Shown: piece after piece, positions 50 through 20,000 of the stretch
How positions within the stretch are numbered: position 1 is the first letter of the stretch
Layout: each line of letters begins with the position of its first letter
Assembly (NCBI GenBank): GCA_048213135.1
Contig: PS015059.1
Coordinates: 394,618 to 414,617, forward strand
DNA from: Reclinomonas americana ATCC 50394
Taxonomy: Eukaryota
Direction: 5' to 3'
DNA length: 20,000 nucleotides
Program-made: the position numbers and the translations under genes
Notes under the pieces: model-generated
The model's database searches: none
Seen by the model: the letters and a program-made list of their open reading frames with translations, nothing else
Told to the model about the DNA's origin: nothing

Positions 50-1799
50 CTCGGGCGATGGATCTTTCAACTTGCGGAGAAGTGTGCGAATTGCGCGCAC
101 TTTGGTCATGGAGATGGCGTCGACATGCAGATCCTCGATAGCATGCCGGAAAGCTGCAGCGTGTTTCGTGGTTAGCGAAACACAAGGACTCTGTCCACAT
201 CAGCAAAAACGCACCAGCTGCGTCCGCCAGCTCCACTCGCACACTGCGCATGCTTTGATCACGATCCAACAGTACCATGATGGCCGCCATGACGGCGGTG
301 CACTGCATGTGCGAGAGAACTTCAGAAGCGGCAGCGGAAATAAACAAAAGATGTATGCAGTTCGGTACCTCCACTGGCGGCGCTGGCATCAACCGAATCT
401 CCTTCAAGTCGGCATCGCGCACATCGCGCAGTCCACGCATCCGCAGCAAGTCGATTTCCGCCTGCAGCGTCGCGCGTTGTGACTCGAATTGCGAGTACAA
501 GCTCACCACCTCCTCCAACTCGGCTTCGAGGTCAGCCGTGGTGGGAGGCGGTGGTTGCGTGCCGTGATCGGTGCTGGCAGGTGGTGCTGCTGCTGCTGCG
601 ACTGCTGCTGCTGCTGTGGCCTCCTGCCCGACTTGATCGCTTCCGCGGTGTCGACGAGGCCGCCACGTGCGGCGACCGGCTGCACCCACCGTGCGCAACT
701 GCAGTTGCACCTCGTGCAAGTCGCGCTCCCGTCGCTCCGCCTCGATTTCCTTTTCCACCACCGAGTCCAGCAGCGCCACTTTTTGAACGACGGCTCGGAT
801 CCACTTGCACATTTCCGCTGCCGCCATGGAGGAGCGACATACGGCCTGTGGGGAAGAGGCGAGAAGGAGTTGAGCGCAGGTAGGGGGCGGGATGGGGAAA
901 GGGTGCGTACCTCAGGCTCAAAATCTGGGTGATCGAGAAACATTTGCATGCGCTGCGGGAGGTCGCGGGGTAACCTGTCCAGCTGCATGTATCGCAGTTC
1001 CTCAAAGAGTTCCGCTGTGTGTGTGGGAGGGGGAAGGATAATGAGGAAAAAGGATTAAGGAGAGTCTTTGTAACAGCAATATTTTCCAGCACTTCTTCGC
1101 AAGTGATTCTAACTCTCCTGCGAACTCGTGAATGCATTCTTCCGTACCATAGTTGCCGTTCGATGTCTTCTCTGTGAATCACATGCTATGCACACTTGAC
1201 AGCCCCTGTTTGCTCCTCTGATGTATGAGGTTCTGTGCGTTCTGATGCAGCTTTCTCTCACTGTCGCAAGTTGCATGCGGCCTTCTGCTGTGGCGAAACA
1301 GTTGCCTTCTCTCCCTCTCTCTACTTGCTCTCTTACAAAGGCATTTCGCGCTTTGTGACTGTGCACTCGTTGCTTTCTGGCGCTGTTCCCTCACTGGAGG
1401 CTTCTGCGTGGATGTCTCTCGTGTCGCTGTTCTGCTGCCTCACGTCGCTCTCTCCTCTTCTGAATGCAGTCGTGTCTCCATTAACTCGCGGCGCAGACCA
1501 GCCTGTTCTGACGCGTTCTCCCTCACGTGACGACCCACCTGCAGAGTTCTCCAACATTGCCGGCTGTTTGTGCCCAAGCAGCACGGCCAGTGCATCAAGA
1601 ACAAGCTTAACCTGCTCCAACGTCGTCAGGGACGACAGAGAAGTTACAGAGGAACGACTGCGGACGAAACCTTGGTGGGCGGCTTGCGCATGGCACGCAG
1701 CTCGTTGACCGTGGCCAGCGAGAGTCCATTCAGCGTGTCGCTCAGCGCGTGCAAGGGCGCCTCGATGGCGCGGCGAGCAGAGCGCGCAGCGAGAAGGGC
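50..1799 (-). CDS. Partial multi-exon gene: coiled-coil protein with two tandem dynein heavy-chain stalk/microtubule-binding-domain (MTBD)-like modules; 5' end unresolved, 3' end runs off the window
   Basis: Phase-consistent GT-AG exons 1671-1799, 1539-1611, (possible 24-nt exon 1148-1171), 911-1014, 369-845, 215-302, 50-153. Module 1: LSLATVNELRAMRKPPTKVKLVLDALAVLLG...LFEELRYMQLDRLPRDLPQRMQMFLDHPDFEPEAVCRSSMAAAEMCKWIRAVVQKVALL. Module 2: VRDADLKEIRLMPAPPVECTAVMAAIMVLLD...FRHAIEDLHVDAISMTKVRAIRTLL. Both resemble the dynein stalk-head pattern E[LI][RK]S...PP..V..V..A...LL ... F.PE.V...S.AA..LCKW.RA (recognised by eye). Confidence 0.75.
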
Positions 1800-1968
1800 C
1801 TGATAGAGAGATAGGGAGGAGGGAGAAGGGCAAGGGATGAGAAGCGGAGAAGGTGAGAAAGGGAGACAAGAGCTGCATCCGTATATCATCACAAGACAAG
1901 GTTACTCTCTGCAGTGCACACACGCCTTGTCCTGCTTCTCTCTGTGTGCATGTGAAGAAGAACGAAGA

Positions 1969-2460
1969 GATGCGAGGCATGCAGACGTATCTCACGACAC
2001 AAGACAAAGCTTCTCTCTGCAAACGAGTGTGCATGCACATGCAGAGCCTTTTGCCCTTCGATTCTCTCTCTCTCTCAGAGTAAGATGATGCGAGGCATGC
2101 ATCCATCTCGCTGCAACACAAGGCTTCTCTCTGTGAATGAGTGTGCATGCACATGCAGAGCCTTTTGCTCTTCGTCTCTCTCTCAGAGTAAGATAATGCG
2201 AGGCACGCATCCATCTCGGCAACACAAGGCTTCTCGCCGCGAATGAGTGTGAATGCACATGCAGAGCCTCTGCCCTTCGTCTCTCTCTCTCTCTCGCTCT
2301 GGTTGCAACACAAGGCTGCTCGCTGCAAATGAGTGGGTGCATGTACATGCAGTGCCCTATGCTCTTCATCTCTTTCTCTCTCTCTCTCTCTCAGAGGAAG
2401 ATGATGCGAGACATGCATCCATCTCGTTGCAACACAAGGCTTCTCTCTGCGAACGACGCA
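1969..2460. repeat. Degenerate ~110-bp minisatellite, about 4-5 copies
   Basis: Recurring unit gatgcgaggcatgcatccatctcg..gcaacacaaggcttctctctg.gaatgagtgtgcatgcacatgcagagccttttgc..ttcg(tc)n-cagagtaagat, starting near 1969, 2087, 2196, ~2300 (partial) and 2403. Confidence 0.85.
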
Positions 2461-2641
2461 TGCGACTTGCTTCTCTCTTTCAAGAGCAAAGAGGAATGCA
2501 CGAAGACAAAAATCACGAAAAGACGATGCCTGTGCCATGTGTGTAAGCATGCTTGTGTGTGTGTGTGTGAGAGAGAGAGAAAAAGACAAGGTGATTGCAT
2601 GCAGAGGATTGATATCTCCTGGGTTTGCATGTCATGTGCCC

Positions 2642-2680
<39 letters not shown>

Positions 2681-2700
2681 NNNNNNNNNNNNNNNNNNNN
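2681..2700. other. Assembly gap (20 N) flanked by (CT)n and low-quality gtag/tacg sequence
   Basis: Run of N. Confidence 0.99.
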
Positions 2701-2791
2701 GTAGTAGTAGTAGTAGTAGTACGTACGTAACGTACGTACGTAGTACGTACGTACGTCGTCTCGTCCTCTACTACTACTCGTCTCTCGTCTC

Positions 2792-2839
<48 letters not shown>

Positions 2840-3094
2840 CGCGCATATGTGTGACAGCGTGTGCATGCGCGTGCATCAAGACAACTACGATTTCAAAACC
2901 CACACGCATCTCTCTCTCTCACACACTCACTCACTCTCTCACACACACCTTCATATAAGCAGCCTCATAGGCCACCAGTCGACTCTGCAACTCTGCCTCA
3001 CTCATTACGAAAAAAAAAACGACTGCTCATTTTCGCTCGAAAATCTCACTCACTCACACAACTTCTCACTCTCAGAGAGAGAGAGAGAGAGAGA

Positions 3095-3208
3095 ATGAGG
3101 GCGGCGAGTGGCTCCTCTGGTGCTAGTGGAAGCGCCTCTGCTCCTCCAGACCCGTTCTTGGTCGATTCCTCAATGTCGTACTCGGTGAGTGAGTGAGAGA
3201 GAGAGAGA

Positions 3209-3239
<31 letters not shown>

Positions 3240-4946
3240 TGTGAGAGAGAGAGAGGGAAAGAGCGAGAGTGAGAGAGAGTGTGAGAGAGTGAGAGGGAGA
3301 TTAGGCGAGGATAGTCGTCGCCTTACACACTTAATCTCTCGCCTTATCCTTGCCTTCCTCACTCTTTCTCTCTCTCTCACTCTCTCTCTCTCTCTCACTC
3401 ACTCTCACTCTCTCTCTCTCTCTCTCACTCCAGTTCCTTCCTGTGTCACTTCCTGCTTTCCTCTGATGCCTCTCTCCTTCTCACTTCCTTCCTCTCTTGC
3501 CTCACCTTGTGCCTTCCAGTCTTTCCTCTCCCTTCCTCCTCTTCCTCGTCTGCTCTCACTTCTTCTCAAGGTCACTCAGTCGCTCAGTTGCTGCCTCGCC
3601 CGTTCTCCCGTGCTTTCCTCTCATGCCTCTCTCCTCTTTCCTCACTGGCCATTCCTTATTCACTCCCTCACTTCTTCAGTCTCTCTTCTCTCGTTGCCTC
3701 TCCTTGTGCCTTCCAGTCTTTCCTCGCCTCTTCTTCCCAGCTTCCTCACTGTTCCTTTTTCACTTCCTCATTCACTGCACCTCACTTTCTCTTCTTCCTG
3801 CCCTGACTTCCTCTCTTGCCTCTCCTTGCGCCTTCCAGCCTTTCCTCGCCTTCTCTCTCTTCTTCTCAACTTGCACACTGTTCTCTTCTCACTCCTCAGT
3901 CACTCAGTTCCTTCCTCGCTTGTCGTCCCCTGCTTTCCTCTCATGTCTTCTGTCCCGCCTCCACTTCTTCAGTCTCTTTCTGTTTCCTCTCCTCGTGCCT
4001 TCCTGTCTTTCCTCACCCTTCCTTCCCCGTCCCCTTCCTTTCCGTCCTCATCTCTGTCCCCTCTGCTCCCTTCCTCACTCATCCTCCCAGGTCTTCATCA
4101 CTGCTTCACTGCCCTCAATCCCTTCTCTCAACCTCGCTCCTTCCCTTTCCTCTCTCACCCTTTCCTCCCTTTCCCCCCTTTAGGCCCAGGTCAAGGTCGT
4201 CGACCCTCGCTCATGGATGCGCACCCTCGAACGCGCCCGGGAACTGTGCGACGCCCTCAACGTGGCTGTCTCGCAAAAGACCACTCTGCGCGCAGAAGGG
4301 TGCGCGCGCGCGCTCTCTCTCTTTCTTCCCGCAGTGCTCACTCGTTTCCCCGCGTGTCACAGAAAGGACGACAGTCGCCTGAGCACTGAGATCCGCTCAC
4401 GAGAGCACTTTTTGCTGCGACAACTCGACCTTTTGCAGGCACAGCTGGCGGAGATGGCGCGCGATATGAACAAGTACAAGATGTTGCGTCGTCGTCGGTC
4501 GTCGGTGGATAATCTGCCGCAGTGCTCACGTTCTGCTGTGCACGTGCGAATGTGCAGCACGCAAGCGGAGGTGAGCAGGAGGAAGGGGCTGTTGCAGGAG
4601 CTGGTGGCGGATACGAAGCGCGTTCGCGATCGAATCTCGAGCACGCCGTCGGCGGCCAGGTGAGTGCGCCCTTTGCTCTGTGTCTTTTTCTTCCTCCTTC
4701 TCTCTTTCTTGCTGTCTCCATGTATGTCCGTTCTCCTTCACTGTCTTCTTCTTGTTCTCTCTCTGTCAGGAAGTGTGTGCGTTCTCGTTCCGACTCTCTC
4801 TGTGTGTGTGCGTTCTGCCTCGCTCCCTCTTTCCTTTTCTCCCTCTCTCCGAAGCATGCTCTCTCCCTCCCCCTCCCTCCCTCTATCTCTTTGTCCGCTC
4901 TCCCTCGCTGTCTTTTCTCTGTGTGAGAGATTGTTTGTCTCTTCCC

Positions 4947-4993
<47 letters not shown>

Positions 4994-6987
4994 CTCCCTC
5001 TCCCCTCACTCCCTCTCTCATTTCTCTCTCCCACTTTCCTCTTTCAGAGCACGTCTGGGCATCGGCAACAAGGCTCCCGCGTCGCCGTCCAACCCCGACC
5101 TGTCTGCCGACGACAGCGACAGCAACCCGCTGATGTCAGCGCAGGAGATCCGTCACGACACGGAGGCGCAAATGCGGAGTTTTGTCTTCGTGCTGTTGCA
5201 GTTGCTGCTGCTGCGCATGCCACTCACTCTGTCACACAGAACAAGACGAAGTGCTCGACCAGCTCAGCAAGTCATTTCGCACCTCCAAGGACATTGCGGT
5301 GGCGATTGGCACGGAGGTCGGTTGCCTTTTCATATCTGATTGTGCATCGTTGGGCTCACTCTGCGTTCCTGCAGCTCGACGGCCACAACCAGATGCTCGA
5401 CGATCTCGATCATGATGTGGAGGCCACCAACGCACGCATGGTCCGCGTGGTCAGCAAGACCAGTTGCGTGATGCATGACGCGTTTCCGTATCAACACTTT
5501 TATCCCCAATCTTGCTGCTGGTCTTGCCTTGCATTCTCGTATCCGGCCTCTCGCTCTCTCTCACACACACACGCACACGCACACAACACAATCTGCATAC
5601 GCACTCGCACGCACGCTGCGCAGCCTCTTTGTTCATGTTCCACGACTTAAATCTCCTTAACTAGCAGTCTTGTTGGCTCGCTGTCACTAATCTTTTTGTG
5701 TGCCTTTGTTGCCGCACTGTTGTCGTGCTGTCCTCTCTCTCTCTCTCNNNNNNNNNNNNNNNNNNNNNNNNNNNNNNNNNNNNNNNNNNNNNNNNNNNNN
5801 NNNNNNNNNNNNNNNNNNNNNNNNNNNNNNNNNNNNNNNNNNNNNNNNNNNNNNNNNNNNNNNNNNNNNNNNNNNNNNNNNNNNNNNNNNNNNNNNNNNN
5901 NNNNNNNNNNNNNNNNNNNNNNNNNNNNNNNNNNNNNNNNNNNNNNNNNNNNNNNNNNNNNNNNNNNNNNNNNNNNNNNNNNNNNNNNNNNNNNNNNNNN
6001 NNNNNNNNNNNNNNNNNNNNNNNNNNNNNNNNNNNNNNNNNNNNNNNNNNNNNNNNNNNNNNNNNNNNNNNNNNNNNNNNNNNNNNNNNNNNNNNNNNNN
6101 NNNNNNNNNNNNNNNNNNNNNNNNNNNNNNNNNNNNNNNNNNNNNNNNNNNNNNNNNNNNNNNNNNNNNNNNNNNNNNNNNNNNNNNNNNNNNNNNNNNN
6201 NNNNNNNNNNNNNNNNNNNNNNNNNNNNNNNNNNNNNNNNNNNNNNNNNNNNNNNNNNNNNNNNNNNNNNNNNNNNNNNNNNNNNNNNNNNNNNNNNNNN
6301 NNNNNNNNNNNNNNNNNNNNNNNNNNNNNNNNNNNNNNNNNNNNNNNNNNNNNNNNNNNNNNNNNNNNNNNNNNNNNNNNNNNNNNNNNNNNNNNNNNNN
6401 NNNNNNNNNNNNNNNNNNNNNNNNNNNNNNNNNNNNNNNNNNNNNNNNNNNNNNNNNNNNNNNNNNNNNNNNNNNNNNNNNNNNNNNNNNNNNNNNNNNN
6501 NNNNNNNNNNNNNNNNNNNNNNNNNNNNNNNNNNNNNNNNNNNNNNNNNNNNNNNNNNNNNNNNNNNNNNNNNNNNNNNNNNNNNNNNNNNNNNNNNNNN
6601 NNNNNNNNNNNNNNNNNNNNNNNNNNNNNNNNNNNNNNNNNNNNNNNNNNNNNNNNNNNNNNNNNNNNNNNNNCTCTTTCTCTTACCTAATCTCTTCGCC
6701 GTTTTGTCATTCCCACCGACGCCGCTGGACTTCGTTTCTGATGTTCTGTCCCTGTCGCACTCGATGCTGCAGAAAGCTCCCAGTCTACTGTTCTCGCTGT
6801 GATCTTTGTTGATGCACCCATTTCGCGTATCGTCGTCTCCTTCTCTCCCCCTTCCCCTCACCCATCCCTTCCCCTCTTTGCAGGCTGGGTCCTCGAGCAA
6901 GCCAAGAGCTCCATCGGCATCGTCACCATCACCCTCCTCCTGGTGCTGCTGGTGATTGTGTTCCTGCTCGTTTTCAAGGTCATTTGA
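3095..6987 (+). CDS. STX8: Syntaxin-8/Syn8-like Qc-SNARE (~275 aa, 8 exons, C-terminal TM anchor)
   Basis: Exons 3095-3184, 4184-4299, 4363-4482, 4558-4659, 5048-5178, 5240-5316, 5375-5462, 6884-6987 join in frame. N-terminal helical region includes ITQAEVSRRKGLLQEL (syntaxin-8-like). SNARE motif QDEVLDQLSKSFRTSKDIAVAIGTELDGHNQMLDDLDHDVEATNARM is followed by the TM tail IGIVTITLLLVLLVIVFLLVFKVI*. Syntaxin-8 versus syntaxin-6 assignment is by eye. Confidence 0.85.
3430..4180. repeat. Pyrimidine-rich degenerate repeats in syntaxin intron 1
   Basis: Motif cttgtgccttccagtctttcctc recurs near 3507, 3704 and 3825 within a CT-rich tract. Confidence 0.6.
5748..6673. other. Assembly gap (926 N) inside the last syntaxin intron
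   Basis: Run of N; exon phases on both sides (ACC A|GC TGG) are compatible without an additional exon. Confidence 0.99.
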
Positions 6988-7125
6988 AGTGGTTTTTTGT
7001 GTGTATTGTGACGGAAATTGTATGTCATTGCTTTTTGTTTACCTCACCCTCGCACCACGTGGCCTGCGCACGCACACTCACGGGTTTTTAAAAGAAAAAT
7101 GCCCACCCTTTCGCCCTTTCTGCGA

Positions 7126-9253
7126 TTACGGCTCGGGGGCGCGCACGTTACGCGGTGGCACACGACCATCGGAGGGATCATTGCGCTGCCACATCGGCGC
7201 CTTGGAGTACTGGTGCATGCGGTCGGAGAGACACGGGCAGAACAGGAATATGCACAGCGACATGCTAAAGCCGCACGACGGCCAGCAGAGGTAGCCGCAG
7301 CGCAGACGCCCGGCGAAGGCCACGCAAATCCAACAGGTGTTGTACAGCGCCACCTGCGTACGCGGGATCAGTCACCACGGTGAGAAGAGACAGAGAAGAC
7401 GGAGTGCAAGGCGACGAATGACGATGAAGAAAGAGAGTCAGAGAGACAGAGAATGACCTCCGCACACACAAAACTACATGCCGAGTACAACGACCAAGCA
7501 CAGCACATCACTTCACAGCCATTGCTCCTTCACCCTCTTTGAGCCGCACGCTCTCTCTCTCCCTCCGCTCTCTTGCAGTCGCTCTCTCACTCTCTCTCGC
7601 CGTTACACTCTCTCGCCGTCGCACTCTCTCTCTCACACTCTTCTCTCTCTCACTCACACTGCCACTCTTTCTCGCTCTCCTGCTCCCTCATTCTCTCAGA
7701 AGAACAAGCTTTTCTCCCCCACTCTCTCTCTTTCTCTCGCTCTCTTTCTCTCTTGCCCTCGCTGTCGCTGTCTCTTACACACTCTTGCTCTCTCTCGCTC
7801 TCTTGCTCTCTCTCGCTCTCTTGCTCTCTCTCGCTCTCTTGCCCATTCTCGCCTTCTTTCTCTCTCTCTCTCTCTCTTTCGTTCTTTCATTCTATTTCTC
7901 TCTCTCTCTTTCTCGCTTGCTCTCGCTCATTCTCGCTCTCTGTCATCTGTTGCTCACTACCTCTCACTGTCTCTCTTTCTCTCGCTGTCGCTCCCTCTCT
8001 CTCCCCCTCTCCCTCTCTCCCGCTCTCTCTCTCTCTCTCTCTCCGTCTCTCCGGGACGCAACGAAAAACGCTGGGGCCAGCAACAGTGGGGCCAACAGAA
8101 TCATGATAAACCACCACGACGTGCAGCACAGCAGGCTCATGCAGCAGCCGCGATGCGATCCCGGCAGCGTGTCGCTCTTTTGCAGTTCCGGATCCTCCGG
8201 ATCGCGGTTCTCCGTGGGTCGGTACCTGTGTGCCGCCGAGTGTGAGCGACCACACACCATTCGTGTGTCGCACAGCGAGAGAAACGACGCTCACCGAATG
8301 CAGTGCAGCCACGTGCCGAGAATGCCAAATGCATTCAGCAGCAACGGGAACGGGAACAGGCACAGGTACGTGCAACACAGCGCCCAGCACACAGCCGAGG
8401 GCGCCGCGTATCGCGTATTGGCTGCGACATCAACTCGTCAGCGCCGCTCTCCCTTCTCACTCTCCTGTAAAACTCAAAGAGAAAAAGACGCAACGCCGGC
8501 CTGGCTCATGCGTGCCCACCAGCGCCCTCGTGTCACGCGCCAAGAATGGCCATCGCCGCACTCCATCGTAATACACATCCTCCCACTCTCGAGTCGGCTT
8601 CCAATCCTGCGCTGCCTCCTTATCTATCCCCTCCCGGTCGCTCACAGGCTTGCTGGCATCTGCAGGTCGACTCAAGCCCATGCGCACACTGACATGCGCC
8701 GGTCCAATGACACCTCCTGGAGGCGAGATACCACCTCCATCATCGTCCTCAAAGGCCAGTGCGCGCTGCACAGAAGGTGAGAGACTCTGTGGCACACTCA
8801 CAGGCAACAGAGGAGACGCACAGCAGTGGGGACTTCATTGAACCGCGCTCCAGGGCGATGCGGAGTGCGCAGTGCCGAGTTGGGCATGCCTAATGATGGT
8901 TCCTGTGTGATACCGATGAGAGAGTGAGTGACATACACGGGGAGACATGCTGCGAGTGCGCGCAACTCGCTGCGCCTTGGAGTACGACTGCAGAATGAGT
9001 CGCGTTCCAGGCGAAGGATCATTGCTGCCTCCCTCCGCCTACAATCATATCAGTGAGCAGTGAGACATGATTGAACTGCATGTGTGTGTGCTCTTACCGA
9101 GGCTGATAGCAGCGCGCGTGCAGCTGAGGAGGAGCGCTCAGGCGAGGCATTGTCGAGGGCGGCGGAGGAGGAGGCCAGAGGCTCAGTGGAGTCGACACTG
9201 GTGTCGAGGGCGCCGGAGCGGCGGATGATGGGAGAGGCGTTTGACTCGCTCAT
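7126..9253 (-). CDS. Hypothetical Cys-rich multi-pass membrane protein (~350-365 aa) with a disordered Ser/Pro-rich N-terminus
   Basis: Phase-consistent exons 9098-9253, 8967-9038, 8822-8902, 8495-8765 (may contain a further in-frame 54-nt intron), 8295-8421, 8063-8225, 7126-7353. Hydrophobic Cys-rich segments: AVCWALCCTYLCLFPFPLLLNAFGILGTWLHCI, GCCMSLLCCTSWWFIMILLAPLLLAPAFFVALYNTCWICVAF, YLCWPSCGFSMSLCIFLFCPCL. No family recognised. Confidence 0.65.
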
Positions 9254-9789: not shown

Positions 9790-11167
9790 TCACCATTCAC
9801 TTGCGGCTTGCAGGCGGATCTTCATTTCGGTGCCTTCGCGCGCCGCCTCCTTGAAGCGCTCCGAGTTGCGGAACCTGGAGAGGGGGGTGTCAGAAGAAGT
9901 GAGACTCACAGTGAGACAGTTGAGGCGGCGTACCTTGGCCAGCAATCCATTCGCAGCGTCCGCAGCACGCTCTTTAGTGCCGGGCCGAATGTGCCGTCGC
10001 CGGTGGGCGGCGGTCTGCGGATGCGAGGACGGATGAGCATGCAGGCGCAGCATGCAAAGAAAGGAGTGATTGTGAGACAACGCAACGGCTGCGACCCAAG
10101 CAGATCAAAATCCACAGGCTCCTCGGCACACACGGCTTGTGCGCGCTGCCAGAAAGTCAAGTTCGGTGGCTCCTCGAAGTGCTTGCGCACTCGGTTCATG
10201 GCCGACGCAGGCTGCGGAGCGCGTGAGGAGACAGGCGCAATGTGAAGACGACTATGGACGATCTTACCAGATTGAGCTCATTCACGGCGTTGTCGGCGAA
10301 GAACTCTGCGGGTAGGTGTGGTGGTGAGATGATGCACGGGAGGGAGAAGAGCGACGGAAAGGTCACGCGTGACGGAAAGGGCAACCTGCAACCGATCCGC
10401 ACTGCCTCCTCGCTACGGAAAGGCCTTCACCCCCTTCCCTCCCCCGCCCCCCCCTCTGCCCTTCCCCTCATTCACCTCTATACATCTCCTCCGCCAACTG
10501 CTCCGATCGATTGCGCTGCGAGGCGGAGCCCGACGACGTGTTACTGATTTGACTGCCGGTTCGCTGCAGCGACGACGCCGACGACATGGATTCGTGCCCC
10601 TCACTGCGCACTCCCTTGTTCTCGCGCAGCAGCGCTGCACGCCACTCCTGGTGTCTCTCGAAGAACAGCAACTGCGGCACAGTGTCAGCGACCACTCACA
10701 TGCTCACATGCATCGATATCGGTTGGACTCACGTTCTCCACGCTCAGTTGTTCCTGCGCAACACAGCAAAACGGCACACGTGAGACGTCGAGGGAGAAGA
10801 GGCGAGACGCATTGATGTTAGACAGGAAAAGACCTTGCGAGAGACTTGGTGTGGCAATGAGAGAGATGATCAACAGAAAGAGAGAGAGGAAAATAGATGG
10901 CGAACGACGAAGCAGGGCTTCCTCATTCATTCTCACTTTCCTTCTGATTTTGTCCCTCCTCCCAACTCAGTGTCTCACAAACGCCCTCTTGCTTTGTTTG
11001 TCACCTAAATTCTTCTTCTTCTTCTTCTTCTTCTCTCTCTTTGTCACATCCTATCAGATCTGCCACAGCAAGTCTATTACACGATCTCTCCCGCATTCTC
11101 GACAATTCAGACAAAGTTGCCTTACTGCCGCCAAGTCTCATGCAATCTCTCCCTTTCTCCCAACCAC

Positions 11168-11201
<34 letters not shown>

Positions 11202-13265
11202 CTCTCTCTCTCTCTCCCCAGATCTGCCGCAACAAGTCTACCACATGGTCGCTCTCTCGCATTCTCGACAATTCAGACAAACTTGCCTTACTGCCACCAA
11301 GTCTCTCACGCAGTCTCCCTCGCGCTCCCCGTCACTCATCTCTCACTTTCTCCTTCTCTCACGAACAAGCACGCGCGGCATCAGTCTGCATCGCGATGGT
11401 AAGTACGATCTGGCGATTGAGAATTATACGGCGGCGATTCAGAGGGAGCCGAGGAATCCAGTTGCGCGATAGGGGAGAAGAAAGGAGGGAAGGTGGAAGG
11501 GAGAGGGAGAGACTGGAAACGCAAATGTGCTGGAAGTGGGAGTCGAAGCGCCCCTTCCTGAACCAGTTGTCACCACCTCCCAGTTGTCACCACCTCCCCC
11601 TTCCTTCGTCTCACCTCTCTTCTTCTCCCCTCTCCTTCTCTCCTCCCATCTTTCCCCTTTTCTCCATTCTCCTTACCTCTCCCTCTTCTTTTCCCCTTTC
11701 CTTCCCTCTTCCCCCTTTCCCTCTCCTTCTCCCTCCCTCACCCCATTCCGCTCACCACCAAATGCTCGCGAAAAGCACCACGCAAATTGCTGTCGGTCAT
11801 CACATCGACAAATCCCACATCGCCCGACAGCAGCTTGGCCGCCAAATCACCAATATCACGGCCCGACGACGACAAGCTGGCGTGCTCCCGCATGATGCGC
11901 CACTCGCCGTAGACTGCCATCCACATCCACACTTGCAGTCCAAGATAGACGACAAAGACGACCGCGCAAGAGCCGACAATGATGAACGGCGAGGCAGCGC
12001 TTTGGTCAATTAGCCAGGCCAGCAGAAGGACTGCACATACACGGTTGAGCGGGTCCACGTGAACAACTGCAACACACACGCACGCGAGACGCAACAGCCA
12101 GTGGAGAAAAAATGAGTCAGTGCCACGACGGTGATCTCTTTCCGCATGCCGAGCGCGTCCCGAACATGCCGCACTGTCCAGGCCTTCCACAACATGGCGA
12201 TGCTGAGGATGAAACTCGTCCCGTTGCCGGTGATGGACACAAACCAGGCGAACCTACATCCTCTGCGGGTGATGACAATGTACACCAACAACAAGCACAA
12301 GCCCGAACATGCAAATCGCTCACTTGGCACATGCGCAGATGTTTTCCACTGAGCCCGAATTGAAGCGGCCTGTGAAGAGCTCAGGAGCGAGGATGGCCGG
12401 AATTCCGGCCGACAGGGCCAGCACCGAAAAGTTGACAATTAGCCAAATGGTAACAAGCCGCTTCTCGCTCACTTTCCTCTCGGCCTTGCGCACCGCCTCC
12501 GGATTCTTCGGCATGTACATGGGCATCGGTGTCGCCGTCTGTCGATCGCTCCTCTCCGGGGTCAGTCCTTCCGACGGTCTCGACGAGAAGGGCACAGAGT
12601 GCGGCAGCAATCCAGAGGAAGCTTCGCGTCGCTTGGCCTCCAGAAGGAGACGCGCACGATTGCCCGTGTATAACACCGCCAATCGATCGGCACGAAGCGA
12701 CTGCCACACGAGTTGAGCAGCAGAGGCAAGGGAATAGAGTGCGTATGGGAGTACGTAACATGAGCTCTCATGTACGACACAAAGCCCCACACTGTAAAGA
12801 TCGGAAACGCGCATAATCTGCAGGGAGAGGTGAGAGGGATGTGACAACAGCAGCTTGGGCGAGGGGCGGACCTGTAGAACTCTCCAAAGAGCAGAAACCA
12901 CAGACAGAAGGTGACAGTGCAGTTGCCGAGAATGATAAGCCAAGGGCCGCGTGGGCGCACAACAGGTGTGTTGCGGAACCAAATCCACATCTGCAATGAA
13001 TCACCAATGTCAATCTCTCTCAGTCATTGACTGAGTGCAGTCAATCAATGTTCGTATGTGTGAGTGTGAGTGAGACACAACGATGGTTGACACTGTCATG
13101 AAGAAGCCTCCGACGCCAAAGAAAGCTGTGCTCACTTCGAATGACCTGTGTGACGCGAGTGAGACAGAGGCAGACTGTGCGAATGAGTACTGACTCGACT
13201 GACCAGTCTTTGAAGTTGGTCTCGACTGAGATCAGCCATGCCTCGCAGCTGCCCAGCACACTCAT
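9790..13265 (-). CDS. 7TM-RGS protein, paralogue A (~552 aa, 13 exons): seven TM helices fused to a C-terminal RGS domain
   Basis: Exons 13204-13265, 13082-13145, 12872-12990, 12760-12817, 12324-12700, 12096-12253, 11756-12030, 10733-10753, 10476-10671, 10268-10305, 10087-10211, 9934-10014, 9790-9874. Seven hydrophobic segments with RNTPVVRPRGPWL, LRADRL and VRDALGMRKEI. RGS motifs AFREHLVEQLSVENLLFF, LAEEMYREFF...NELNL and LRMDCWPRFRNS. Exon phases, and most exon sizes, match paralogues B and C. Confidence 0.9.
11057..11320. repeat. Two-copy direct repeat (~95-bp core, ~165-bp period) inside intron 7 of 7TM-RGS A
   Basis: gatctgcc.ca.caagtcta...cgcattctcgacaattcagacaaa.ttgccttactgcc.ccaagtctc at 11057 and 11221, separated by a (CT)n tract. 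Confidence 0.85.
11370..11460 (+). other. Isolated TPR-encoding exon-like segment, antisense within intron 7 of 7TM-RGS A
   Basis: Pyrimidine tract plus aag acceptor, then TRGISLHRDGKYDLAIENYTAAIQREPRNP (TPR pattern G......G.Y..A...Y..AI...P), then a gttgcgc donor. No other exons of this gene were identified. Confidence 0.6.
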
Positions 13266-13667
13266 CTTTGGCAGAAGAGCAGGTGCGGGGAGACAATGTG
13301 CTCTCACACGGCCTTCTGTGTGGTGATTGGTCCTGCTGCTCACGGGACGACCCCTGCGCGAAGTCCCTTGCTTCTCTTGTCTGGCGAGGTGCATGGCAAA
13401 TGACAACAATCTCATTCACCAAAAAAAAAAACAAGCAACAGCTGTCTTGATGACCAAGTCCAACAATATCCATACGTCAACACGAACTTGAGGCAGCAGC
13501 AGGTCTTGACCTCCGATTTCCTGGCATAATTCTCCCTGCAACAACCCAAATGGCGCTGTGCCTCCTGGTGCCCTTTTTAACCTTGCATCCACGACCCACA
13601 TCGACGTCCGTCTCTGCCTCCGTCGCTGCCTTCCGATTGATTGCTGATTATTATATATTAGTTGATT

Positions 13668-15785
13668 CTACCACATGCTGGCTGCTTGCACTCGGATTTT
13701 CAGTTCGGTTCCCTCGCGGGCTACTTCCTTGAAGCGCTCCGAAGTGCGGAATCTGTGCGACGTGCAGAGGTGAGCAGGTGTGTGTATCGATATGGGAAAC
13801 GTTGATGCAATCGTGGAAACCTTGGCCAGCAGTCCATGCGTAGTGTCCGCAGCACGCTCTTCAATGCCGGTCCAAACACGCTGTCTCCAGAAGGCGGCGG
13901 TCTGCGGAGAGGTGGCGAGATGAGAAGAGAATGGGACAAGGAGAGAAGGCAGAGAAAAGGCAAGGATAGAGCTTGGCGACAAGGACAGAATGTGTGCATA
14001 GAGATGCAGGGAGCAGGTATCAGAATGATGAAGCAGAGAACGAGACGAAAGAAGAAGAGGAAGGATCAAACACTTAACTCTCTAACTCCCAGATTCCGTT
14101 TTTCCTGTCCTGCTTCATTCCCATCCCCTGCTCTCCTTTCTTCTTCCCCTCGTTCACTGTCTATCCACTTCTCATTTCCCCATTCATCATTCGCACCCCC
14201 TATCTCCCTCTCCGTTTTTCTTGCGCCCATTGTTCCATACCCACTTTCTTCATTTCGCTTGTTCCCCCCTTTCTCCATGTTCTCTCTGTGTGCACCTCTA
14301 AGAGTTCACTACTCTCCCTCTCTTCGTCGATCTCACTGTATCGTGCGGTCCTCGCCTCTTCTCTATCTTCTCCTCTCTTCATTCTCTTTAGTATCGGGTT
14401 CTCCTTCATCTTTCCCTCGTTCACTCTCTTTAATCCTTCTCTGCCCTTTCCCTTCTCCTCCCCTTCGACCCCCCCTTCCCTCCTCATGCACGCAACGGAT
14501 GAGATCCCAGCGGATCAAAATCCACTGGCTCCTCCGCACACACGGCCTGAGCGCGCTCCCAGAAAGACATGGTCGCCGGCTGCTCGAACTTGTTGCGTAC
14601 TCGGTTAATGGCCGACGCCGGCTATGCGGGCAGACAAGAGTCAGGCGCGAATGTGCTTCAATCCCGTCCTGCAAGCACCCTCTCTCTCGCTCTCACCAAG
14701 TTCAATTCGTTGACAGCGTCGTCAAGGAAGAAATCTGCGGCGGTGCAAGTGGGTGAGCAATCTCACGTTGGGAGACGTCCGTCTCCCACACCAACCTCTG
14801 TACATCTCCTCGGCCAGCTGCTCCGATGCATTACCCGGCACCGACTCCACTGCACCGCTGCTACTGCCGATGCTGGCCGGTGCCGTCCTCCTCCCCTTGC
14901 CCTCCCTCACGAGCGCCGCTCGCCACTCTTGGTATCGCTCAAAGAACAGCAACTGCGTTGCGATAGGATGAGAAGCCTGTACCATGCACAACACGCATAT
15001 CTCCCACTCACACACTCACATTCTCCACGCTGAATTGTTCCTGCATAACAGAATGAGACGTAAGCGAAAGTCTAGTCGTCGTCGATGCCTTCATCACGCA
15101 CAAACTCACCACCAGGTGCTCACGGAATGCACCGCGCAGCTCACCGTCGGTCATCACATCGTGGAAGCCGACCTCACCCGACAGCAACTTCTCCGCCAGA
15201 TCGTCACCAGCAGCACCCGCCAGCTGCGCACTTGCCGCTGCCTGCCGCATTATCCTCCACTCCTTGTAGATGACAGTCCATGTCCACGACTGGATGGCCA
15301 CCTGCGCCAGGAAAATCACGGCTGCCGACCCCGTGGTCACAAAGGGTGAGGCCACGGTCGTGTCGGCCGACCACGAAATCAACAAATCTGCCATAGGCGC
15401 AGCGTGGGCAATCCCGGCGTAGCGACCGCCATGCACAATCTGCAACGCAACATGTCGTGCTGACAAAGTTCACCACGGCAATGGCGGTGATCTCCTTGCG
15501 CATACCGAGTGCGTCCTTGACGTGGCGCACCGACCACGATTTCCACATCATGATGAGGCTCAAGAATACGTTGGCGGCGTTGGCCGCGATCGATACGTAC
15601 CAAGCGAACCTGGGAAGGGGGAAGAGTGGGGAAGGGGGAAGGGAGAAGGGAGAAGGGGGAAGGGGGAAGGGGAAGGGAAGGGAAAGGGGGAAGGCAAAGG
15701 GGGAAGGGGGAAGGGGGAAGAGGGAAGGGGGAAGGGGGAAGGTCAGAGAGCGAGAGGAAAGGAAACATGCATTCAACAAAGGGAG

Positions 15786-15818
<33 letters not shown>

Positions 15819-17955
15819 TAAGGAAGGCACGAGAGGGAGAGAGGAAGAGAGAGAAAGAATAAGTGAGAAGGAGAAGAGAAAGAGAGAGCGCAACAGGCAA
15901 GCAAACTGAGAGAGAGAGAGAAATGCCAGAGATAAAGAGGCAGAGAGAGAAAGAGAGAGACAGAAAAGAAAGACAGCAAAGACTACGAGATGGAGAAACC
16001 AAGGAGGACAGAGATCAGCTTTGACCACTACGCGCATACACACACGAGTTGAGAAAGAGAGAATGTGTGCGCGTGAGAAAGAGAGATGAAAGAGATAGAG
16101 ATACTGGAAGCGAGGCACAGAGTGTGAGACTCAGAAATCATGGAGGAGAGATTGCGAAGCAGAGAGGGAGGCAAGCAAAGTGACGAACAGAGAGAGAAGA
16201 GGCAGAACAAAAAATGGAGAGGAGAGCAGAGGAATCAAAGAAACAGACGGAGTGCACAGACGCAAACACACATACAGAGAGAGAAAGCACTGAGTTGCTC
16301 GTGGACTCTGATCCTCAGAAAATTCAAGCACTCTCCTCATCGCTTCTTTCGTCTGCTCTCTCCCTCTCTCTCTTCGCCTCCCTCTCTCCCTTTCTCCTTT
16401 TCCTTTCCCACAAACCTGGCACACGCACACAACTCGTTGTAATCCATCGCCGTATAGCTGTTGGTGAACATGGCCGGGTCCGCCGCCGCCGGGATGATCG
16501 CCGAAATGGCCAACACAATCGACGTGTAGATGGCCCAGGAGATTAGCAACCGTCGCTCGCTGACCTTTTTCATCGCATTCTGCATCGCCTGGTTATTCAA
16601 CGGCACATACTTGGGCGGCGGCTGCGGCACATCGCCATGCCGATTCGGCAGCAGCCCATCCGATGGTCTCGCCGAGTACGGCACCGAGTGCGGCAACTGC
16701 AAACTCGACGCCTCTCGTCGCTTCGCCTCCAACAGCAATCGTGCTTGATTGTTCGAATACAGCACCTTGATGCGATCCGCACGCAGCGACTGCGAAGCAG
16801 CTCAATTCAGCGATCGGAGAAGCAAGTGACGACGAAGCGGAGAAGAAGAGGCGCAACATGAGCTCGCATGCTGGCCGTGAAGCCCCACAGTGTAAACACA
16901 GGAAATACGCATAGTCTGCCACGCCACGTCAGTTCACCAGACAATATCACGCGACCACACAGTGTAGTGGTACGCACTGTCGTTGTGTGCCTATCAGCAG
17001 AAACCACATGCACAGCGAGGTGGAGGCATTGGCGAATATGACCAGCCACGGGCATCGTGGTCGCAGGATCGGTGAGTTGCGCATGACGAGCCACAGCTGC
17101 AATAGAGGGGGTAATGGAGAGGGTGTCAGAGGGGGTAATGGGGAAAGGAGGGAGTATGGAAGGGAGAGAGAGGAAGAGGAGGAGAAGAAGAAGAAGAGGA
17201 AGAAGAAGGCGAAGAAGAAGAAGAAGAGGGAGGAGGAGGAGGAGGAGGAGGAGGAGGAGGAGGAGGAGGAGGAGGAGGAGGAGGAAGAGAGAAGAAGAAG
17301 ACNNNNNNNNNNNNNNNNNNNNGAGGAGGAGGAGGAGGAGAAGAAGGGGAGAATGAGATGGAGGAGAAGACGAAGAAGACGAGGAAGAAGAAGAAGGACA
17401 AGGAGAAGGAGAGGAAGAATAAGAAGAAGAAGAAGAGAAGAAGTAGAAGTGGAAGAAGATGAAGGGAAAGAACTGCCCGTCTGTCATCTTCCTCTCTTTC
17501 TCTGCCGTGTCTTCTCTGTTCCTCTTTCTCTTTCACTCCCTCACTGCCTCTCTCTCTCTCGCTCTCTCTCTCCCTCTCCCTCTCACTCGTTCATTCATTC
17601 ATCCTCTCCCCCCTCCTCTCTCTCTCTCACAAGGCTCTCCCTGCCAATCGACCTCCTTTCATCCACTCATTCTCCTTGTCTGTCTTTCTCTCTCTCTTTC
17701 ATTCTCTCCCCCTCTTCTCTCTCACACACACATGTGAGAGTCATGTACGCAACAACAGCTGCAATGGAGTTCACTGCGCCAGCTGTGGCAAAGAGAATGG
17801 TGCTGACATGATACACCCTGCGTGCAGTCAACAACAACATGTCACATGTGACTGCAGTCTTTACGCGTTTCGCTGCTCATGCGCGCAAAGTACCATGGAT
17901 GATAGTTGAGGATAAGATGCGTGTACCAGCCGACACAGTCGCCCAGGGCGCTCAT
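13668..17955 (-). CDS. 7TM-RGS protein, paralogue B (~539 aa, 13 exons)
   Basis: Exons 17894-17955, 17754-17817, 16978-17096, 16858-16915, 16416-16789, 15452-15609, 15110-15387, 15020-15040, 14796-14952, 14697-14734, 14497-14621, 13821-13901, 13668-13752. Start MSALGDCVGWY aligns with MSVLGSCEAWL of A. Motifs RNSPILRPRCPWL, VKDALGMRKEI, FREHLVEQFSVEN, NELNL and DCWPRF are present. Confidence 0.9.
17303..17322. other. Assembly gap (20 N) inside an intronic (GAG/GAA)n microsatellite
   Basis: Run of N within the 17165-17460 purine triplet repeats. Confidence 0.99.
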
Positions 17956-18278
17956 GGCTCCTGCAACGCGATACGAATCTGGGAATATTTCGTTCGGTGG
18001 GACATAATTGATTGCTCTCGCAGAAACACGCGACGTTGACACGAGAAGAGACAGAGATGCATATTATTCTAAAGTGCTCTACATGGGAAGGGTTTTGACC
18101 AACCTCGATCTCCTCCACAGGCTCAAGGATTGAGAATGAAGTGTGCAGGTGTCGACGTCATAGATCGAGAAACAGGGTTTCGGCTGTATGAGGTGAAGGT
18201 TTGCGAAATGAAGAGGCAACTTGCAATCTGGTCGGCGATGGCAAACCTTGGTCGTATATCATCCGCCCAGCTGCACTC

Positions 18279-18460
18279 GTGAGCTCTCTTCTGTGAATCC
18301 ATTAACTACGATCCTCCTCCTGTCCTCGATCGTACGAACTCAGCACATCTGTGAGCTCTCTTCTACGTTTCCTTAAGCCTCGAACCTCCCGTCTCCCCCC
18401 CTCTCCATTAAGCCGTCATACTCTGCACCACTGTGAGCTCTCTTCTCCGTATCCTCCTTT
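18279..18460. repeat. Three degenerate ~75-bp repeats between 7TM-RGS C and B
   Basis: gtgagctctcttct occurs at 18279, 18351 and 18433. Confidence 0.6.
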
Positions 18461-18489
18461 CCTTTGACGCAATTATTACTAGCATTACA

Positions 18490-19927
18490 TTACCACACGC
18501 TGGCAGTGGCAGCCTGCAAGCGAATTCTCATCTCTATGCCCTCTCGTGAGGCCTCCTTGAAGAGTTCGGAGTTGCGGAATCTACCACACCACGCTGCATG
18601 TAAGCCGAAGGGTGAATCTGTCGACGCAACAACAACAACGACGACAACGCACCTCGGCCAGCAGTCCATTCGCAGCGTGCGCAACACGCTTTTCAGTGCC
18701 GGACCAAACACACCATCTCCCGACGGCGGAGCACTGCGCATTTTACCACGAATGAGCAAAACTGCGACGTCTCCTTGCACATTCACACACGCAACGGATG
18801 TGAACCAAGCGGGTCAAAGTCCACTGGCTCCTCAGCGCACACGGCTTGCACGCGCTCCGGGAACGACATGTTTGCTGGCTCCTCGAATTTCCTTCGCACG
18901 CGAGTCATGGCAGAGGCCGGCTGGTGGTACGGTGAGCATCGTTTGTGGACGGAGTCTCGCACGAACTCACTCACCACATTGAGCTCACTTGGCGCATTCA
19001 CCGCAAAGAACTCTGCGGGTGACGACTCGAATGAGTGCACTTCACGACCTTTTGCCAGGCCCCCACAACACTCACCTCTGTACATCTCCTCCGCCAGCTG
19101 CTCGGAGTGGCCGACGTGCGAGAACGGCGACGACAACACGTCACCACTCTTGAGGCTGGCCACACTGCCCAGCGACTGCGAGGACTGATCCCCGACTGGC
19201 TGTCGCAGTCCCTTGCCCTCTCGCACCAGAGCCGCACGCCATTCTTGGTGCCTCTCAAAAAACAACAGCTGAACACGCAAAGATATGAGCCAATCTGTAA
19301 CAAGTTTGCCCTTGTCCACCACCAAACGCACATTCTCCACACTGAGTTGCTCCTGTGCATCAAAAAGCGCGCGAGGGTGAGCGAGTACGCACAACAGGGT
19401 TTCTCAACCACCGAGACACGAACCACCAGGTGCTCCCGAAACGCGTCTCGCAGCGCCGAGTCGGTCATCACATCGACAAAGCCGACGTCCCCATCCAGCA
19501 GCTTCTCCGCGAGTCCATCACGATCGCCTCCACCAATCGTTGACGAAAGGCTTCTCTCCCGACGAAGCAGGCGCCACTCTCTGTAGATGACGAGCCAAGT
19601 GATCACTTGCAGGATGCAAAACGCCGAGACGATGCACGCGGCTGAGCCGACGATGATGAACGGCGAAATGGCTGTTCTGTCAATCGCCCACGACGTCACT
19701 AAATCTGCACACACAAGTATGTCAGCCGACAAACAAGAAACTGACGTGAGTCGGTCCCTTTCACGCAACAGCCGGTGCTGAAAAAGTGCACCATGGCGGC
19801 CACCGTAATCTCCTTGCGCATACCGAGTGCGTCCTTGACGTGCCGAATTCTCCACGCCTTCCACAACATGACGATGCTGAACAGGAAGCTGATGCCGTTG
19901 CCGGTAAGCGATACCGCGTAGGCGAAC
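18490..19927 (-). CDS. 7TM-RGS protein, paralogue C (3' part; exons 1-5 lie beyond the window end)
   Basis: Exons 19770-19927, 19424-19704, 19332-19352, 19076-19268, 18975-19012, 18796-18920, 18653-18733, 18490-18580 are homologous to exons 6-13 of A and B (VKDALGMRKEI, FREHLVEQLSVEN, SELNV, DCWPRFRNS). Confidence 0.88.
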
Positions 19928-20000
19928 CTGGAGCCACAGGGGAGATATGAGGTCGAAGGAGAGAGGGGGGAAGGGAAGGAGGAGGAGGAGGAGGAGGAGG

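Follow-up and report, generated by a model that had tools for sequence, protein, structure and literature searches.

A second class of 5′ splice sites with the motif GTTGCGT in a 20-kb window of the Reclinomonas americana genome

In one stretch of the Reclinomonas americana genome, many introns begin with GTT and carry the conserved G-T of the donor one base further inward than ordinary introns. Do these donors form a class of their own, and how would a spliceosome read them? The window is the whole stretch analysed, 20,000 nucleotides of contig PS015059.1, numbered from its first base. Gene models were rebuilt from coordinates alone for six genes in this single window:

paralogue A, 12 introns
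paralogue B, 12 introns
paralogue C, a partial gene, 7 introns
a SNARE-like gene, 7 introns
TM3, a membrane-protein gene, 5 introns
G1, a partial gene, 5 introns and one further donor

The models of TM3 and G1 are based solely on frame continuity and splice signals. All six modelled coding sequences have 0 internal stops. The termini GT...AG, a criterion of U2-type introns, are present in 48/48 complete introns, including all 17 that start with the displaced motif. The assembly is interrupted by N gaps, and positions 2701-2790 look like junk. An earlier note on this DNA had labelled paralogues A to C as RGS genes. The label is supported by P0002, an R. americana EST ORF according to its source, which represents the C-terminal part of paralogue B and passes the gathering score of the Pfam RGS family (PF00615, 28.1 bits, cut-off 23.9, E = 2.9e-6). 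A Pfam search with single exons gave no match.

The six models contain 49 donors, 17 of the GTT type (class 2) and 32 ordinary ones (class 1). The note had counted 50 donors in total; its 17 GTT-type donors all reappeared with the same coordinates, heptamers and strands when rechecked on the sequence. GTTGCGT accounts for 11 of the 17 and GTTGCGC for two, besides four single variants. The class-2 introns are:

1612..1670, minus strand: G1 intron 1, GTTTCGT, 59 nt, phase 0; loose member
4483..4557, plus strand: SNARE-like gene intron 3, GTTGCGT, 75 nt, phase 2, GCAG end
5179..5239, plus strand: SNARE-like gene intron 5, GTTTTGT, 61 nt, phase 1, ACAG end; loose member
5463..6883, plus strand: SNARE-like gene intron 7, GTTGCGT, 1421 nt, phase 1, GCAG end; the length spans an N gap (5748-6673) that may hide an exon
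7354..8062, minus strand: TM3 intron 5, GTTGCGT, 709 nt, phase 0, GCAG end
8422..8494, minus strand: TM3 intron 3, GTTGCGT, 73 nt, phase 1, GCAG end; CTGAC branch motif 17 nt from the 3′ end
8766..8966, minus strand: TM3 intron 2, GTTGCGC, 201 nt, phase 0, GCAG end; the least certain model, its acceptor picked by frame and signal alone
10015..10086, minus strand: paralogue A intron 11, GTTGCGT, 72 nt, phase 2
12031..12095, minus strand: paralogue A intron 6, GTTGCGT, 65 nt, phase 1
12701..12759, minus strand: paralogue A intron 4, GTTACGT, 59 nt, phase 0; a donor 3 nt downstream was ruled out by its AC start
12991..13081, minus strand: paralogue A intron 2, GTTGTGT, 91 nt, phase 0
13902..14496, minus strand: paralogue B intron 11, GTTGCGT, 595 nt, phase 2; junction in the transcript-derived protein
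15388..15451, minus strand: paralogue B intron 6, GTTGCGT, 64 nt, phase 1; junction in the transcript-derived protein
16790..16857, minus strand: paralogue B intron 4, GTTGCGC, 68 nt, phase 0
17097..17753, minus strand: paralogue B intron 2, GTTGCGT, 657 nt including a 20-N gap, phase 0
18734..18795, minus strand: paralogue C intron 11, GTTGCGT, 62 nt, phase 2
19705..19769, minus strand: paralogue C intron 6, GTTGCGT, 65 nt, phase 1

Class 2 is set apart first by the exon end. An exonic -1 G precedes 1/17 GTT-type donors versus 27/32 ordinary ones (Fisher p = 9e-8). The single exception is G1 intron 1, where the two frames join into an open CDS and a CTGAC branch motif lies 15 nt from the 3′ end. 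By independent intron position, -1 G is absent from 10 of the 11 GTT-type positions, as the note had reported.

The inward displacement of G(T) that the note described is equally clear from the counts. All 17 class-2 donors carry G at +6, and 15 of them T at +7. Within the window, GTT-starting donors have G at +6 in 17/21 cases and other sense-strand GTT sites in 44/188 (p = 3e-7); for GT at +6/+7, the figures are 15/21 and 8/188 for the background. The heptamer GTTGCGT occurs in 14 copies on both strands, where 1.94 are expected; donors account for 11 of these copies. None of 200 dinucleotide shuffles reached 14 copies, the maximum being 6. Within gene spans, sense-strand copies of GTTGCGT serve as donors in 11/12 cases, those of GTGAGT in 7/14 and those of GTGCGT in 4/11.

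The class is also kept at homologous introns of the RGS paralogues, another point raised beforehand. Donor class is concordant in 31/31 paralogue copies, comprising 10 class-2 copies at 4 positions and 21 class-1 copies at 8 positions. Among paralogue pairs, 6/8 class-2 heptamers are identical, compared with 1/18 class-1 hexamers. In the alignments the heptamer is invariant while the flanks diverge, and conservation drops at +8; at intron 11, paralogues A, B and C share the same heptamer up to this limit. A search for introner-like or transposon-derived similarity found no shared bases past +7 in the 17 contexts, and intron lengths range from 59 to 1421 nt.

The note had regarded each class-2 donor as an ordinary donor type with one extra T. 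This derivation fails at +5. Ordinary donors have A (15/32) or C (11/32) at +4, whereas the matching +5 position of GTT-type donors holds C in 15/17 cases, with A in 0/17. GTTGAGT is missing among the 17, though GTGAGT is the commonest ordinary donor. The 5′ splice sites of the window fall into two distinct kinds, class 2 making up about one third of its donors. Within the literature that could be searched, no description of such a donor class was found.

The share of one third may be a local effect. The class would then be real but rare genome-wide, its frequency here being due to a tandem paralogue triplet and a few neighbours. One window was sampled, and 10 of the 17 donors are copies at four positions of one paralogous family. 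However, outside the paralogues, class 2 provides 7/18 donors in three unrelated genes (SNARE-like gene 3/7, TM3 3/5, G1 1/6), and the share by independent position, all within this window, is 11/30, with the 11 positions spread over all four gene families as noted earlier. Local sampling is a quite improbable account.

The position of cleavage has been read from the EST-derived protein. P0002 is identical to the spliced model of paralogue B at 152/155 residues, to that of A at 117/155 and to that of C at 114/155. Its sequence agrees exactly with the modelled junctions of five paralogue B introns: 6 and 11, whose donors are GTTGCGT, and 9, 10 and 12 (...FVSTT-Y-LLISWS... across intron 6, ...GSHP-PPPS... 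across intron 11). Transcript support thus covers 2/17 class-2 junctions. At these two, the cut lies directly 5′ of the first G of GTTGCGT. Because the cut precedes this G, the extra base lies inside the intron.

Misplaced boundaries would explain the pattern differently, with exons ending in GTT and GC-AG introns starting GCGT; a homopolymer T error in GTGCGT would do the same. A 3-nt shift leaves all frames open, so gene models alone are not decisive, and the N gaps and junk-like stretch of the assembly leave room for error. Nevertheless, P0002 lacks at both junctions the residue that a GC donor placed 3 nt downstream would add, and GTTACGT, GTTTCGT and GTTTTGT would turn into introns beginning AC, TC and TT. 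GTT is a rare valine codon (9/171), yet it would close exons in all three phases. A sequencing error would have to place the same T in three independent paralogous loci, and could not follow the absence of -1 G, as the T does. Both versions are hardly credible.

Downstream of the donor, the classes are largely alike. A YTNAY branch motif lies upstream of the 3′ splice site, at a distance of 10-40 nt, in 14/17 class-2 and 28/31 class-1 introns. The motifs CTCAC, CTGAC and CTCAT are common to both at similar distances, the pyrimidine fractions of the 3′ tail are 0.63 and 0.69, and the length spectra are alike (medians 66 and 72 nt). Shared branch motifs and length spectrum point to the same 3′-end machinery for both classes. 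U12-type introns are recognized by RTATCCTT at the 5′ end and, near the 3′ end, by a branch site resembling TCCTTAAC. Judged by RTATCCTT and TCCTTAAC, class 2 is not of the U12 type: its 5′ motif is GTTGCGT, no U12-like motif was found in these introns, and the branch motifs are those of class 1. One difference remains at the acceptor. A GCAG end is present in 16/17 class-2 versus 17/31 class-1 introns (Fisher p = 0.008), and per-position fractions are 0.91 versus 0.50 (Mann-Whitney p = 0.004).

This acceptor preference speaks for an alternative in which class-2 introns are recognized with no U1 pairing, through contacts of one intron end with the other or through a protein. In the end-contact version, the five bases that close the intron (YGCAG) have their complement in +2 to +6 (UUGCG), and both sites would be selected together, either by a pairing of ends like that proposed for other Discoba and their non-conventional introns, or by 5′-3′ contacts of the second step. 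Diplonemid noncanonical introns are described as pairing their ends (PMC12621601). In class 2, +5 and -4 can pair in 17/17 introns (C:G 15, U:A 1, U.G 1), and the only intron with A at -4, intron 5 of the SNARE-like gene, is one of two with U at +5. On the other hand, -4 G is common in class 1 too, and no compensatory change is seen at +4/-3, where C still stands opposite A or U at +4. Euglenozoan-type end pairing, assessed by partition-function folding of the short introns, was not significantly above class 1 (median summed probability 0.72 versus 0.28, p = 0.20); for several class-2 introns the value is about 0. Such pairing would also take up U+2 and the AG, bases that have to be held by the catalytic centre. 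Recognition of this kind appears improbable.

Pairing to U1 was predicted by a nearest-neighbour duplex search allowing bulges and loops, using as U1 5′ end the canonical motif, which may differ from the organism's own. In any register, class 2 reaches a mean of -0.86 kcal/mol and class 1 a mean of -7.0 kcal/mol. The best single class-2 site attains -4.1 kcal/mol and most are about 0, in a calculation that leaves out pseudouridines and proteins. By this prediction, class 2 has next to none of the complementarity to the canonical U1 5′ end, in the canonical register, that characterizes U2-type introns. The two class-1 GTGCGT donors without -1 G are also weak (-2.7 and -1.1 kcal/mol). With canonical U1, a slid or bulged donor would pair best if +5 were A rather than C.

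Near-absolute C at +5 and a negligible canonical fit are what a dedicated guide predicts: a variant U1 or other U1/U11-like snRNA complementary to GUUGCGU, acting in the ordinary register beside a canonical U1, with branch site and 3′ end left to the common U2-type machinery. The heptamer behaves like a guide target, being rigid, discrete, conserved across paralogues and independent of an exon signal, and class 1 fits canonical U1 well. Against such a guide, the 20-kb window gave no Rfam match, and the catalytic step would still require U6 to tolerate an offset of one base. The 5′ end of U1 is known to show almost universal conservation. The guide is a tentative alternative, on the unlikely side. 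With the same reserve, it would imply two parallel systems of 5′ splice-site recognition in one U2-type spliceosome, a putative second guide serving a third of the introns and coupled to GCAG. This would be a third intron class beside the U2 and U12 types, in a lineage often used for inferring features of the ancestral eukaryote.

The preferred reading, with a probability of roughly 0.55, is that these are ordinary major-type introns with two classes of 5′ splice site, removed by one spliceosome that reads class 2 with an unpaired U or a slid helix. The introns would be major-type spliceosomal introns with GT...AG ends and a CTSAY branch. Class 1, (A)G/GTGAGT or GTGCGT, would depend on the exonic -1 G. 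Class 2, /GTTGCGT, would make do with no exon-end signal, relying on seven almost invariant intron bases with the conserved G-T at +6/+7 instead of +5/+6 and on a stricter YGCAG intron end. A single spliceosome probably removes both, accommodating class 2 by leaving one U (+2 or +3) unpaired or by sliding the snRNA helix one base. The altered register would be used twice, when the 5′ splice site is selected and later at the handover to U6. For exons unable to end in G, the class-2 motif may provide a signal that lies in the intron and suffices by itself. A pure U1-register model does not predict the stricter GCAG acceptor. The interpretation in the earlier note is partly supported: the donors are real and cleavage is before GTT, as read at introns 6 and 11 of paralogue B; the ordinary-plus-T origin is not supported as stated, and the variant U1 or U6 that it suggested would be a candidate explanation.

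Register flexibility of U1 has been documented for human donors (PMC4856993, citing Roca and Krainer, 2009, and Roca et al., 2012, as references 10 and 16). Table 3 of this source lists 68 predicted and 54 curated sites of the bulge +2/+3 register out of 201,541 (Tan et al., 2016). The note's comparison with human shifted or bulged registers is apt: the intron GU is kept and the remaining consensus displaced by one base. Human shifted or bulged donors and class 2 alike start with GU, carry the consensus one base inward and are cleaved at the GU. In the human donors one U at +2/+3 lies outside the helix or the helix is slid by one, as the preferred reading proposes for class 2. The human bulge is a rarity, while class 2 comprises 17/49 donors here. 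In the human cases the alternative register gives the better fit to U1, whereas GUUGCGU is predicted to fit canonical U1 poorly in all registers. Class 2 also differs in its rigid motif, the missing exonic -1 G and the stricter GCAG acceptor.

The 5′ motif of U12-type introns is long, rigid and confined to the intron; these introns have no consensus at the exon end, and their class is kept at homologous introns. Class 2 resembles them in all three respects. However, its motif is unrelated to RTATCCTT, its CTSAY branch and 3′ ends are as in class 1, and its share of about one third is far above the usual. Euglenid non-conventional introns have base-paired ends. The non-conventional introns of Euglenozoa share with class 2 the Discoba lineage and a possible complementarity of intron ends; as described in PMC12621601 they are without GT-AG, whereas here GT-AG and the branch motif are kept.

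Two main kinds of 5′ splice site have been described, AG//GU (U5-leaning, 'left-handed') and //GURAG (U6-leaning, 'right-handed') (PMC9803359, PMC11732430, PMC11842720). As portrayed in these sources, they resemble the present case in opposing exon-side to intron-side donors, -1 G see-sawing with the intron consensus. They share one register and overlap continuously, while here almost no intermediates occur, and class 2 differs from //GURAG as given there by an extra base and another sequence (GUUGCGU). Under the preferred reading, the shifted or bulged mode that is rare in humans would be a constitutive major class in R. americana.

Donors that begin with GTT and carry a G at +6 form a discrete class in this window and are not the tail of one donor distribution. 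The window is intron-rich and eukaryotic, has 55% G+C and two N gaps, and yielded no match in Rfam. Gene models were assembled by coordinates from ORF lists and a comparison of paralogues:

13265..9790, minus strand: RGS gene, paralogue A, 12 introns
17955..13668, minus strand: RGS gene, paralogue B, 12 introns
19927..18490, minus strand: RGS gene, paralogue C, 7 introns, 5' part beyond the window
3095..6987, plus strand: SNARE-like gene, 7 introns
9253..7126, minus strand: membrane-protein gene TM3, 5 introns, predicted from the window sequence only
1799..50, minus strand: partial gene G1, 5 introns and a last donor at 49, likewise predicted from the window only

The coding sequence is open in all models, and GT...AG borders all 48 complete introns (37 of 54-91 nt, 11 of 170-1421 nt). 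A CTCAC, CTGAC or CTCAT motif is located mostly 13-30 nt upstream of CAG in the modelled introns. The 50 donors counted in an earlier note on this DNA become 49 in the models, comprising 17 GTT-type donors (class 2) and 32 ordinary ones (class 1).

All 17 GTT-type sites named in that note are present. The heptamers are GTTGCGT (11), GTTGCGC (2), GTTGTGT, GTTACGT, GTTTTGT and GTTTCGT (one each), the last two fitting the class only loosely. Both strands together contain 14 copies of GTTGCGT, where dinucleotide shuffles predict 1.94 and none of 200 gave more than 6; for comparison, GTGAGT is observed 26 times against 15 expected. Within gene spans, 11 of 12 sense-strand copies of GTTGCGT are used as donors, as are 7/14 of GTGAGT and 4/11 of GTGCGT. 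The twelfth GTTGCGT is located 22 nt inside an intron of paralogue C. A G at +6 was found in 17 of 21 GTT-starting donors and in 44 of 188 other sense-strand GTT sites (p = 3e-7), so that the enrichment on which the earlier note had staked its claim exists within the window. The class-2 sample comes from one window with 30 independent intron positions, and 10 of its 17 copies are paralogous.

The three RGS paralogues (9790-20000, minus strand) are head-to-tail copies of a gene for a protein with several predicted hydrophobic stretches and, after them, an RGS domain. The copies have 12 intron positions in common, and intron lengths vary up to ten-fold among the copies (intron 11: 72, 595 and 62 nt). 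A 21-nt micro-exon encoding EQ(L/F)SVEN, with short introns on either side, is kept in all three (10733-10753, 15020-15040 and 19332-19352, minus strand); in paralogue A, the intron upstream of it measures 1002 nt. A profile from the alignment of exon 6 of the three paralogues (A4) was applied as protein search query and retrieved a single protein, P0002. The source, an EukProt record, describes it as an EST ORF of Reclinomonas americana, placed in Discoba, Jakobida. P0002 is identical to the spliced models at 152/155 residues for paralogue B, 117/155 for A and 114/155 for C. The window accordingly comes from R. americana or a strain very near to it. It contains a Pfam RGS domain above the gathering score, which supports the RGS label given to the paralogues in the earlier note. 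No proteins of near length were found with A4, and exon 7 of paralogue B had no match among longer proteins.

Cleavage in class 2 precedes the GTT, with transcript proof at two of the 17 junctions, those of introns 6 and 11 in paralogue B. Both donors are GTTGCGT, and the P0002 sequence is ...FVSTT-Y-LLISWS... at the intron 6 junction and ...GSHP-PPPS... at that of intron 11, in each case without an extra residue. The class-1 junctions 9, 10 and 12 of the same gene are confirmed by P0002 as well. A GC donor 3 nt downstream, with exons ending in GTT and introns starting GCGT, would leave every reading frame open, and the models by themselves cannot rule it out. This reading was rejected because P0002 lacks the additional residue at the two GTTGCGT junctions, and because introns with GTTACGT, GTTTCGT and GTTTTGT would then start with AC, TC and TT. 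Moreover, GTT accounts for 9 of 171 valine codons yet would end exons in all three phases. Finally, paralogue DNA alignments reveal third-position changes in the exons, an invariant GTTGCGT, and an end of similarity at +8. A homopolymer sequencing error as source of the extra T was excluded: the same T occurs in independent paralogous loci and tracks the missing exonic G at -1.

Paralogue B also has two unusual class-1 donors, GTTTCC and GTTGGT (13753-13820 and 14735-14795, minus strand); P0002 confirms that they are used, and each comes after an exonic G. In P0002, ...LLISWS of exon 7 is followed directly by G-EEMYR from the end of exon 9, and 139 modelled residues are missing. The two genomic sites, 15368 and 14811 (minus strand), have a 6-nt direct repeat GGCCGA in common, which suggests a template-switch or cloning deletion and not splicing. 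The three residues that differ from the paralogue B model are G for A at the join and, near intron 12, P to T and R to S.

The two donor classes differ on the exon side, in their conservation and in their acceptors. The last exonic base is G at 27 of 32 ordinary donors versus 1 of 17 GTT-type donors (p = 9e-8), and the latter retain no exon-side consensus. At introns 2, 4, 6 and 11 of the RGS paralogues, all 10 copies are GTT-type; at the other eight positions, all 21 copies are ordinary. Protein identity in exon 7 of the paralogues is only 57-60%. Among paralogue pairs, 6/8 GTT-type heptamers but 1/18 ordinary hexamers are identical; the GTT-type donor is therefore much more tightly constrained. 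GCAG ends 16 of 17 GTT-type and 17 of 31 ordinary introns (p = 0.008), or fractions of 0.91 and 0.50 per independent position (p = 0.004). Branch motifs, branch distance, pyrimidine content and length spectrum do not differ between the classes, and the 3' half of recognition looks common to both. An assignment of class 2 to U12-type introns was rejected on motifs, nothing U12-like being seen. An introner family was rejected after examination of GTT-type contexts and paralogue alignments, in which similarity ends at +8.

The earlier note had described about one third of the donors as ordinary donors with one extra T, read by a slid or bulged U1 helix. The geometry agrees: all 17 GTT-type donors have G at +6 and 15 of them have T at +7. 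Base content and U1 pairing do not. If each ordinary type were mirrored, +4 of the ordinary donors (A 15/32, C 11/32) should correspond to +5 of the GTT-type, where C is found in 15/17 and A in 0/17; GTTGAGT is absent among the donors, though GTGAGT is the commonest ordinary one. In a duplex search allowing bulges and internal loops, pairing to the U1 5' end averaged -0.86 kcal/mol for GTT-type and -7.0 for ordinary donors, the 5' end being a canonical motif that may differ from that of R. americana, with pseudouridines taken as U. The two ordinary GTGCGT donors without G at -1 also pair weakly (-2.7 and -1.1), and the GCG core may for this reason be favoured on grounds beyond U1 pairing.

The main rival explanation, which we consider unlikely, is a second guide RNA with complementarity to GUUGCGU; it would account both for the need for C at +5 and for the weak match to canonical U1. 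The link of GTT-type introns to GCAG prompted another proposal, a pairing of +2 to +6 (UUGCG) with the last five bases of the intron (YGCAG). Position +5 can indeed pair with -4 in 17/17 introns (C:G 15, U:A 1, U.G 1), but folding of the short introns gave no significant excess (p = 0.20), and such pairing appears still less probable than a second guide. The best reading, with a probability of about 0.55, involves one spliceosome for both classes. The extra U would be excluded from the U1 helix and later from the U6 helix, and the rigid intron-side motif would make up for the absent exon signal.

Searches of ten single exons against Pfam resulted in no match above the cut-off; the only one noted was a weak SNARE match (E = 0.039), and the SNARE label is provisional because this sole match is weak. 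G1 (50-1799, minus strand) contains one module in two tandem copies (...PP-x-x-V/C..., then ...F/S-x-PE at the exon end), whose introns occupy corresponding positions. No Pfam family was found for the module, and an initial impression of a dynein was dropped, as G1 is not recognisable as such. HMMER with its 159-aa exon against 1.84 billion representatives returned one weak match, P0001, an unnamed 162-aa ENA metagenome fragment with 33% identity. Past the shared exon, P0001 continues with V-R. These residues agree with a class-1 donor GTNCGN and carry no information on class 2. An in-frame GTTGCGC (693-699, minus strand) within the large G1 exon precedes an arginine-rich low-complexity stretch and was a candidate for an unrecognised intron. 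The in-frame acceptors downstream of it are all poor, and P0001 retains a stretch about as long; the GTTGCGC at 699(-) was treated as exonic. In front of the first visible G1 exon, a 114-nt tandem repeat rich in GCATGC/TGCATG occupies 2000-2295 (2.7 copies, 84% matching). Runs of N are located at 2681-2700, 5748-6673 and 17303-17322; the first of these, a 20-N gap, adjoins a junk-like run of GTA, then ACGT, then TC repeats (2701-2790), which looks like an assembly artefact. A metagenome scan with alignment A1 gave 48 pattern matches, none of them confirmed. The R. americana nuclear proteome is seemingly missing from the protein collections searched, EST ORFs excepted.

Knowledge of 5' splice-site choice and of U1/U6 helix slippage derives, to our knowledge, almost entirely from human and yeast, in which off-register donors are rare curiosities. 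A one-base-offset donor used constitutively in about one third of introns, rigid in sequence and badly fitting canonical U1, would if true represent a natural experiment on the register flexibility of snRNA helices, on what sets the cleavage point, and on how exon-side signals are traded off against intron-side ones. Jakobids are important in reconstructions of early eukaryote and mitochondrial history. Many of their genes will be modelled wrongly by gene finders that have learned from ordinary donors.

Literature searches for GTTGCGT, GUUGCGU, GTTGCG and GUUGCG found no splicing paper, subscription journals and supplements being outside their scope; those on Reclinomonas or jakobid introns, splicing and snRNA found no account of the nuclear splice signals of this organism. 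In its accessible part, the Andalucia godoyi genome paper reports 134 verified introns, all GT...AG, and gives no further detail on donor sequence there. The Rpl7a paper describes an R. americana intron of 877 nt. The human precedent cited in the earlier note is real and concerns a tiny share of sites, since the +2/+3-bulge register is listed for 54-68 of 201,541 (PMC4856993, Table 3). Off-register donors are rare in human and make up about a third of the donors in the R. americana window. Off-register 5' splice sites as such are already known, but not, within the literature searched, as a rigid and abundant class that is stable between paralogues and favours a particular acceptor.
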